A stretch of DNA of 35,359 nt from Escherichia coli (GCF_003334305.1 NZ_QOWS01000034.1), one strand, 5' to 3'. Shown: positions 30,997 through 31,692, numbered from the stretch's first letter. The notes: generated from the letters alone by a model not told the origin. A program made the numbers and translations.

Positions 30997-31692
30997 AAAA
31001 GTGATCCGTCATGTTATCTCGTACAGGCCATGAACACGGCATATTCGTACCGCAAAAAATATCGGAAATGCCGCCTTGATGGCGGTGAAAATAAAATCAC
31101 CACTCCTTCATCACCCCGCATTTTACGCTTCAAAATAAATAAGAAAAGGACTTTTTATCGATCGTAAAGAGGGGTATTCTGCAAGCGTTAAATAGATTGT
31201 ATGAACCTGTTCAATTCGCGTCAGGTGTATTATGGCAATAATTTAAATATAGAGTTTTTTATGCATCTTATTGAATTATATAATAATTTCATTAAACATA
31301 AGCTAATCTAATGATTGCTTATTTATATATTTGTTTTGTGATTGATTAAGTGGGTATTTTTAAGGAGTATCTCAAAAATTATCAAAATGATAATTCAGAA
31401 AGGATAAATACAATATTTATTCATGATTCAGCTTTGGCCATTTTATGGAGGCAATACGGACTTTGAACAGTTGGGTATGGTTATCCAGATATATATTATT
31501 AAGTTATTGCTGAATAAGAGATTTAATGATTTTAAAAATAGTTTTTACGACAACCGTAAATTCTAGCTCGGTTTGTATGTAAAAAATACTGAAAAATGAT
31601 GCGGTTCCGTGAAGTGAGCTGCATCTGCCTGTCTGGGATTAACGGCAGGTCATTGTAAGTAGTAATTAACCACGTTAACAAGGAGTTTACAA
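30997..31692. promoter_or_regulatory. AT-rich divergent intergenic region: probable promoter/regulatory hub for the tssB operon (-) and hcp-vgrG operon (+)
   Basis: About 700 bp of non-coding, strongly AT-rich DNA between the divergent tssB and hcp start codons. Contains A/T tracts and one GATC site (31160..31163). Individual promoter elements not confidently assigned. Confidence 0.55.

Follow-up and report, generated by a model that had tools for sequence, protein, structure and literature searches.

The window analysed here is a stretch of 35,359 nucleotides from Escherichia coli (GCF_003334305.1, NZ_QOWS01000034.1), and all positions given below are counted from its first letter. Its gene order begins with rrf and dnaQ, followed by the tRNA-Asp gene aspV (8349-8425) and then by a complete T6SS island, which comprises, on the minus strand, tssB, tssC, tssE, tssF, tssG, tagH, tssJ, tssK, dotU, clpV, vasI, tssA, tssM, vasL and hcp, and on the plus strand hcp, vgrG and rhs. 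In the naming used in the literature, an island of this gene set is the E. coli T6SS-2 (PMC13141884), and the window is the aspV-linked T6SS-2 island. The divergent first genes, tssB and the plus-strand hcp, are separated by a gap of exactly 696 bp at 30997-31692. A sequence-only reading had described this gap as about 700 bp of non-coding and very AT-rich DNA between two divergently transcribed T6SS operons, and the description was borne out: tssB lies on the minus and hcp on the plus strand, the GC content of the spacer is 32.8% compared with 52.0% in the window, and the RefSeq annotations of strain A7, O157:H7 Z910 and Sakai place no gene inside it. The features discussed below are collected in Table 1.

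Table 1. Features of the tssB-hcp spacer and the genes flanking it, in window positions.
Feature	Position	Strand	Description and basis
tssB	30496-30996	minus	First gene of the ~20-kb structural operon (tssB ... tssM ... hcp); ORF and RefSeq annotation
Whole tssB-hcp spacer	30997-31692	none	't6sP' of E. coli T6SS-2, described in the literature as its bidirectional promoter region; AT-rich H-NS target
Proximal leader and ribosome-binding region of tssB	30997-31036	minus	GGAT kept in Yokenella and Citrobacter
Block B	31119-31161	minus	Candidate tssB promoter/operator, inferred; GATC 31160 at its edge
Fast-evolving filler	31191-31258	none	Deleted or unalignable in E. albertii; 1-bp indel at 31253 among E. 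coli
Central block C	31320-31434	none	Candidate back-to-back promoters
Leader stem-loop 1	31598-31625	plus	Kept in E. albertii via G-U-only changes; weak, two lineages only
Leader stem-loop 2	31627-31650	plus	Stem GCCUGUCUG / CGGCAGGU, loop GGGAUUAA (31635-31642); ends 42 nt before the hcp ATG
hcp Shine-Dalgarno region	31678-31685	plus	ACAAGGAG; matches the CsrA ANGGA motif
hcp (hcp3/Z0266 in EDL933)	31693-32211	plus	First gene of the effector side (hcp, vgrG, rhs); ORF and RefSeq annotation

Over all 696 bp, the spacer is 100% identical to that of E. coli A7 and 98.4% identical to that of O157:H7, from which it is separated by about 11 differences. It was found in 2236 of 5426 complete E. coli genomes (~41%), as a single copy in each and always at an identity of at least 95%. 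The corresponding gap between tssB and hcp3 of EHEC EDL933 has been named "t6sP" and described as a bidirectional promoter (Vazquez-Lopez 2026, PMC13141884). The reporter primers of that study fit the window with 0 mismatches at 31003-31022 and 31667-31686, defining the segment 31003-31686, and the homology arms of its promoter swap end, likewise with 0 mismatches, at 31026 and 31662, so that 31027-31661 was replaced. Because the primers of the EDL933 study match the window exactly, the spacer is identified as t6sP; the flanking genes and the 696-bp length are common to both, and only strain-level polymorphism differs. The spacer is the two-way control region already known from EHEC T6SS-2, and nothing sets it apart from the one described there.

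Between tssB and tssC, a 74-codon 'hypothetical protein' (30237-30461, minus strand) is annotated in every E. coli record examined; at the same position in Salmonella relatives lies an ORF of 70 codons (L009, 3034-3246), and tssC follows directly after tssB in the other relatives. The tssC gene of O157:H7 Z910 (L002, 799-2190) is annotated 84 nt shorter than that of the window (1392 vs 1476 nt; window 28711-30186), and a 90-nt gap follows tssE in the same strain. Both observations are consistent with the degeneration of the O157 T6SS that has been claimed in the literature (PMC12981562). At one locus, that of E. coli strain 1506 (L017, NZ_CP059288), an IS1 element abuts spacer position 31567 and tssB and the structural operon to the left are gone, the remnant consisting of a 126-bp hcp-proximal part of the spacer, hcp and a vgrG pseudogene. 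At another, that of E. coli EC21 (L022, 1297-1896), hcp and vgrG are annotated as abutting truncated pseudogenes, which indicates a deletion fusing the two genes just downstream of an intact spacer. Within the window, the hcp-vgrG gap (32212-32420) contains a perfect 14-bp GC-rich hairpin with a T run at 32220-32251, 9 nt past the hcp stop codon (z -3.7 vs shuffles). This hairpin corresponds to a terminator, also termed 'h3R region I', which was reported to split hcp3 from vgrG3 and to stabilise the hcp3 mRNA (PMC13141884).

The base composition of the spacer stands out within the island. Its 50-bp stretches contain 14-26% GC at 31247-31446 and 16% at 31497-31546, TpA steps occur at 10.3 per 100 bp compared with 4.3 in the window, and among all windows of 696 bp along the 35-kb sequence, only 0.9% reach this AT content. 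The sole other comparable stretch, 9378-10422, belongs to the island edge by aspV. This edge, at about 8426-11100, encodes yafT, ykfM and a 304-codon hypothetical protein at 27-36% GC and is likely another H-NS target. A scan for the high-affinity H-NS motif TCGATAAATT returned 3 spacer sites at a score of at least 8/10, compared with 2.4 in shuffles, 46% of which reach 3. Within the window itself, it is base composition that points to H-NS, and the binding data come from another strain, EDL933.

Those data concern the near-identical EHEC sequence. H-NS binding at the region and several transcription start sites were reported by Kim, Lee and Yoon 2022 (J Microbiol 60:928), as cited in PMC13141884. 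Deletion of hns in EHEC EDL933 raises the transcripts of z0254, z0264 (tssB) and z0267 (vgrG), tssB by ~60-fold (Wan 2017, PMC5363993). GFP and mCherry fusions to the two ends of the spacer are off in the wild type and weakly on in an hns mutant, and replacement of the spacer by Ptac and ParaBAD switches on TssB, ClpV and Hcp3 (PMC13141884). Luciferase fusions, on the other hand, were not activated by any of many media, metals and sugars, the sci1-inducing medium included (PMC13141884 Fig. S6). Across the EHEC studies of t6sP, the region is described as repressed by H-NS, as having several start sites and as responding to no single inducing condition. The proposal that the spacer is an H-NS-silenced, multi-input region serving two divergent T6SS operons is thus upheld by published experiments on the EDL933 sequence. 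However, mRNA is made in the EHEC hns mutant and protein is scarce (PMC13141884); with so little protein after deletion of hns, H-NS can explain only part of the control. A related case is the T6SS of Salmonella SPI-6 (Brunet 2015, as cited in PMC5363993), which is likewise AT-rich, horizontally acquired and H-NS-silenced but has a different promoter architecture. The long divergent spacer of the window does recur in Salmonella, in the relatives of the present system (L009).

To follow the spacer beyond E. coli, relatives were collected by a TssB scan of the genome collection (4 loci), a protein search and exact-protein look-ups. The same divergent tssB/hcp layout was present in the relatives, with spacers of 645 bp in E. 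albertii, 638 bp in Yokenella, 635 bp in Citrobacter youngae, 626 bp in Salmonella, 590 bp in C. farmeri, 552 bp in Superficieibacter and 635-652 bp in other relatives. A second E. coli lineage, represented by 29 genomes, has a spacer of 682 bp. The spacers of the relatives contain 29-34% GC compared with 45-52% in the flanks. Because the layout recurs with spacers of 552-696 bp and 29-34% GC, length and composition represent a conserved design and no accident of one strain. The conservation of a long AT-rich divergent spacer across seven genera, together with four constrained blocks inside it, is new here.

The second E. coli lineage carries a diverged T6SS of the same layout (L016, E. coli 21AR0303, NZ_CM132268 2911426-2916598). 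Its TssB nucleotide identity to the window is 61%, and only the hcp-proximal 170 bp of its 682-bp spacer are detectable by blastn (71%). At the protein level, Hcp is 88-100% identical across the seven genera (L003-L016), and TssB only 67-76% outside Escherichia; this striking contrast reflects a difference in constraint, or in exchange, between neighbouring genes.

The constrained blocks were delimited in comparison with E. albertii, for which synonymous third positions provide a neutral reference of 61% identity in tssB and 74% in hcp. At 62-69% identity, the spacer as a whole evolves at about the neutral rate. Four segments exceed it: 30997-31036 (85%), 31131-31170 (88%), 31339-31434 (78-92%) and 31649-31692 (80%). 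The outermost two are leader and ribosome-binding stretches next to tssB and hcp. Comparison with more distant relatives refined the picture for the two internal blocks. In block B, CATTTTAC (31119-31126), which reads as a -10-like TAAAAT on the minus strand, and GAnAAGnACTTTTT (31143-31156) are invariant in five genera. Block C retains TTATCAAAATGATA (31379-31392) as well as AATACAATATTTATTCATGAT (31407-31427) across three diverged lineages of the spacer.

Both internal blocks may contain promoters. A consensus scan of block C identified ATGATA and TACAAT separated by 16 nt on the plus strand (31387-31414) and TTGATA on the minus strand (31385-31380), and the L016 spacer reads GTGACA ... TATAAT in the same columns. 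Scans of the spacer for sigma-70 promoters with both a consensus and a PWM returned many candidates, none above chance (5 vs 4.7). The promoter positions proposed in blocks B and C are guesses from sequence. The best minus-strand sigma-70 match, at 31224-31196, was discarded: its segment varies among E. coli strains and is missing from E. albertii.

Taken together, the spacer is very probably the native two-way, H-NS-silenced control region of T6SS-2, with constrained blocks embedded in less conserved DNA. Under this model, the structural operon starting with tssB would be transcribed leftward and hcp rightward, both from the spacer. H-NS would bind and silence the AT-rich DNA and thereby keep T6SS-2 off in laboratory conditions, a step that the literature shows for the near-identical EHEC sequence. 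The four constrained blocks would hold the promoters and the sites for factors that relieve silencing. Transcripts would carry long leaders, and that of hcp would form a conserved hairpin.

The hcp leader deserves separate consideration, as it could add a second layer of control. Leaders were folded lineage by lineage and compared in a trimmed alignment; a MAFFT alignment of four leaders had scrambled the hairpin. In 10 of the 12 spacer lineages, the stretch 78 to 33 nt before the hcp start is predicted to fold into a hairpin significantly more stable than shuffled versions of it (mean z -2.7); also in 10 of 12, the RNA of the plus strand folds more stably than that of the minus strand. Loops of 4 to 10 nt occur, a variation that disfavours a protein-binding palindrome of fixed spacing. 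A GGA is located in the hairpin loop in five lineages and at the stem-loop junction in four, and three lineages are without a loop GGA. In the window, the GGA sites of the loop GGGAUUAA and of ACAAGGAG at the ribosome-binding site are ~45 nt apart, and this combination of a predicted loop site with a second one at the ribosome-binding site corresponds to the classic CsrA/RsmA arrangement. The motif AAGGAGTTT within the Shine-Dalgarno region is invariant in 10 of 12 lineages, L011 and L013 having an altered version. ANGGA motifs 8 nt from the start codons of tssB and hcp3 were already reported (PMC13141884), so that of the CsrA-like sites only the upstream loop GGA is new; the recurrence of the hairpin across lineages, often with a GGA in its loop, is new as well.

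We therefore considered whether the hcp leader could be a CsrA-type translational operator, layered on H-NS silencing and not replacing it. A transcriptome report cited in PMC13141884 describes repression of hcp3 and tssC by CsrA in EHEC; the ANGGA motif is situated 8 nt from the ATG, and ACAAGGAG is nearly invariant among the relatives. Such an operator would add a post-transcriptional lock and explain why the hns mutant makes mRNA with little protein, whereas the swap strain, which is without 31027-31661, makes Hcp3 and TssB (PMC13141884). A lower mRNA level in the hns mutant would, however, explain the protein difference equally well. The structural evidence is limited too: in the five alignable sequences 92.5% of the cells are paired, but covariation does not exceed that of shuffles, E. 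albertii keeps its leader stem only through G-U pairs, and the window's own hairpin (31627-31650) reaches a z of only -0.87. Three lineages are without the loop GGA, and a GGA is present in any Shine-Dalgarno sequence. The T6SS leaders repressed by RsmA/CsrA in Pseudomonas aeruginosa (Allsopp 2017, as cited in PMC13141884) similarly combine a GGA at the Shine-Dalgarno sequence with one in an upstream hairpin loop; unlike in that case, the CsrA site of the hcp leader is a prediction, and its loop GGA is not universal among the relatives. On balance, a CsrA operator in the hcp leader is possible but doubtful. Still more tentative is the combined hypothesis in which blocks B and C may dock a factor that counteracts H-NS silencing and the leader hairpin may serve as the CsrA operator.

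As an alternative route to activation, CpxR could act directly on the hcp-side promoter, by analogy with the hcp2B promoter of the APEC T6SS2, to which CpxR-P binds (Yi 2019, PMC6534853). The APEC vipA2/hcp2B system (Ma 2018, PMC5874247) is a homologous T6SS-2 of the same back-to-back layout and is H-NS-repressed as well as Fur- and iron-independent (PMC5874247). In the spacer, GTAAA(N4-8)GTAAA with at most one mismatch occurs three times compared with 0.84 expected, a count reached by 4% of shuffles, and one of the three, a weak CpxR-like site, GTAAA-N7-GAAAA (31579-31595), is situated in the hcp-proximal conserved block. Nevertheless, the enrichment is marginal, this site carries 2 mismatches in E. 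albertii, and the primers for the APEC hcp2B promoter found no match in the spacer. The spacer sequences of the two systems have diverged; CpxR binding has been shown in APEC and is only weakly suggested by the motif matches in t6sP. Direct activation by CpxR is therefore unlikely, though it fares better than the explanations that follow.

The sequence-only reading had further pointed to half-sites loosely resembling Fur boxes and to a single GATC site. Its evident source is the sci1 system of EAEC, in which Fur boxes overlap GATC sites and iron and methylation together set expression as an epigenetic Fur/Dam switch. Like t6sP, the sci1 promoter (T6SS-1; Brunet 2011, PMC3145626) serves an E. 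coli T6SS and lies upstream of tssB, but its T6SS is of another family and has its genes in another order, and its Fur boxes overlapping GATC are absent from the t6sP spacer. The string singled out, AATGATAATTC, is indeed present at 31386-31396, inside block C. Every spacer 19-mer was scored on both strands against the consensus GATAATGATAATCATTATC, alongside the 7-1-7 motif, with 1000 dinucleotide shuffles as reference; neither the consensus nor the motif rose above chance. The best match, 13/19 at 31403-31421, is no better than chance, as the best match in shuffles averages 12.5 and 45% of them reach 13; likewise, the five 19-mers scoring at least 12/19 compare with 2.9 expected, and 19% of shuffles reach five. 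Fur-like matches are confined to 31353-31421 and 31522-31540. The 19-mers covering AATGATAATTC score 12/19 (31377-31395) and 11/19 (31383-31401), values easily reached by shuffles, and the string itself is not conserved, being split by 4 inserted bp in E. albertii and replaced by GTGACAATTA in L016. It was accordingly rejected as a Fur box, so that the half-site stands as a string and falls as a Fur signal.

The GATC count also needed correction, from one site to two, at 31003 and 31160, which is an ordinary density given the window average of 3.7 per kb. Both are at least 190 bp from any Fur-like match, leaving no GATC-Fur overlap. The first (31003-31006) lies within a conserved GGATCA, 7-12 nt before the tssB ATG, and the second is lost in E. 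albertii. Fur does govern the other E. coli system, T6SS-1 (PMC3145626; PMC5874247), but transcription of clpV2 and hcp2B in the APEC T6SS2 is unchanged by iron limitation or loss of Fur repression and changes upon loss of hns (PMC5874247), and the EHEC fusions were inactive in sci1-inducing medium, as described above. A Fur/Dam switch in the spacer is thus highly improbable.

It is just as improbable that the spacer hides an independent gene, whether for a small RNA or for a small protein (for example Z0265, an old call in EDL933, or EcHS_A0240), although the sequence-only reading had allowed for a small regulatory RNA or a short ORF. A permissive Rfam search of 30400-32400 gave 0 matches at E ≤1, and no terminator was detected in the spacer, the only terminator-like site lying inside tssB. 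Six ORFs of 36-56 codons are present, and several of them are listed as 'hypothetical protein' in part of the automated annotations for Escherichia and Shigella, which is their only presence in databases; the old EDL933 tag Z0265 is probably one of these small-ORF calls. Yet RefSeq annotates none of them, no spacer ORF matched an NCBIfam family, and the reading frames are disrupted among close relatives. Indels of 1 bp among E. coli strains affect the 45-codon ORF (31030-31167, at 31053) and the 36-codon ORF (31201-31311, at 31253), the 38-codon ORF has lost its GTG start and gained 4 bp in E. albertii, and the 47-codon ORF (31423-31566) is cut to 9 codons by a stop in E. albertii and to 7 codons in L016. 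Least credible of all is a sigma-54 promoter with an enhancer-binding protein, as in the VasH system of Vibrio cholerae: many T6SS clusters depend on sigma-54, but TGGCAC-N5-TTGCW at up to 3 mismatches had no match inside 30997-31692, leaving the spacer without a -24/-12 element, and the island is without an enhancer-binding protein gene.

The reading of the spacer as the H-NS-silenced, two-way control region bears on the commonest type VI system of E. coli, T6SS-2, which is also that of EHEC O157:H7 and for which a natural inducing signal has still not been found. The spacer is where the on/off decision of T6SS-2 occurs, a role already recognised and under active study. To this, the present analysis adds a clear negative result on Fur/Dam control and a cross-genus map that reduces the 696 bp to four short blocks and a leader hairpin. 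These blocks and the hairpin provide targets for mutagenesis in addressing how T6SS-2 is activated.
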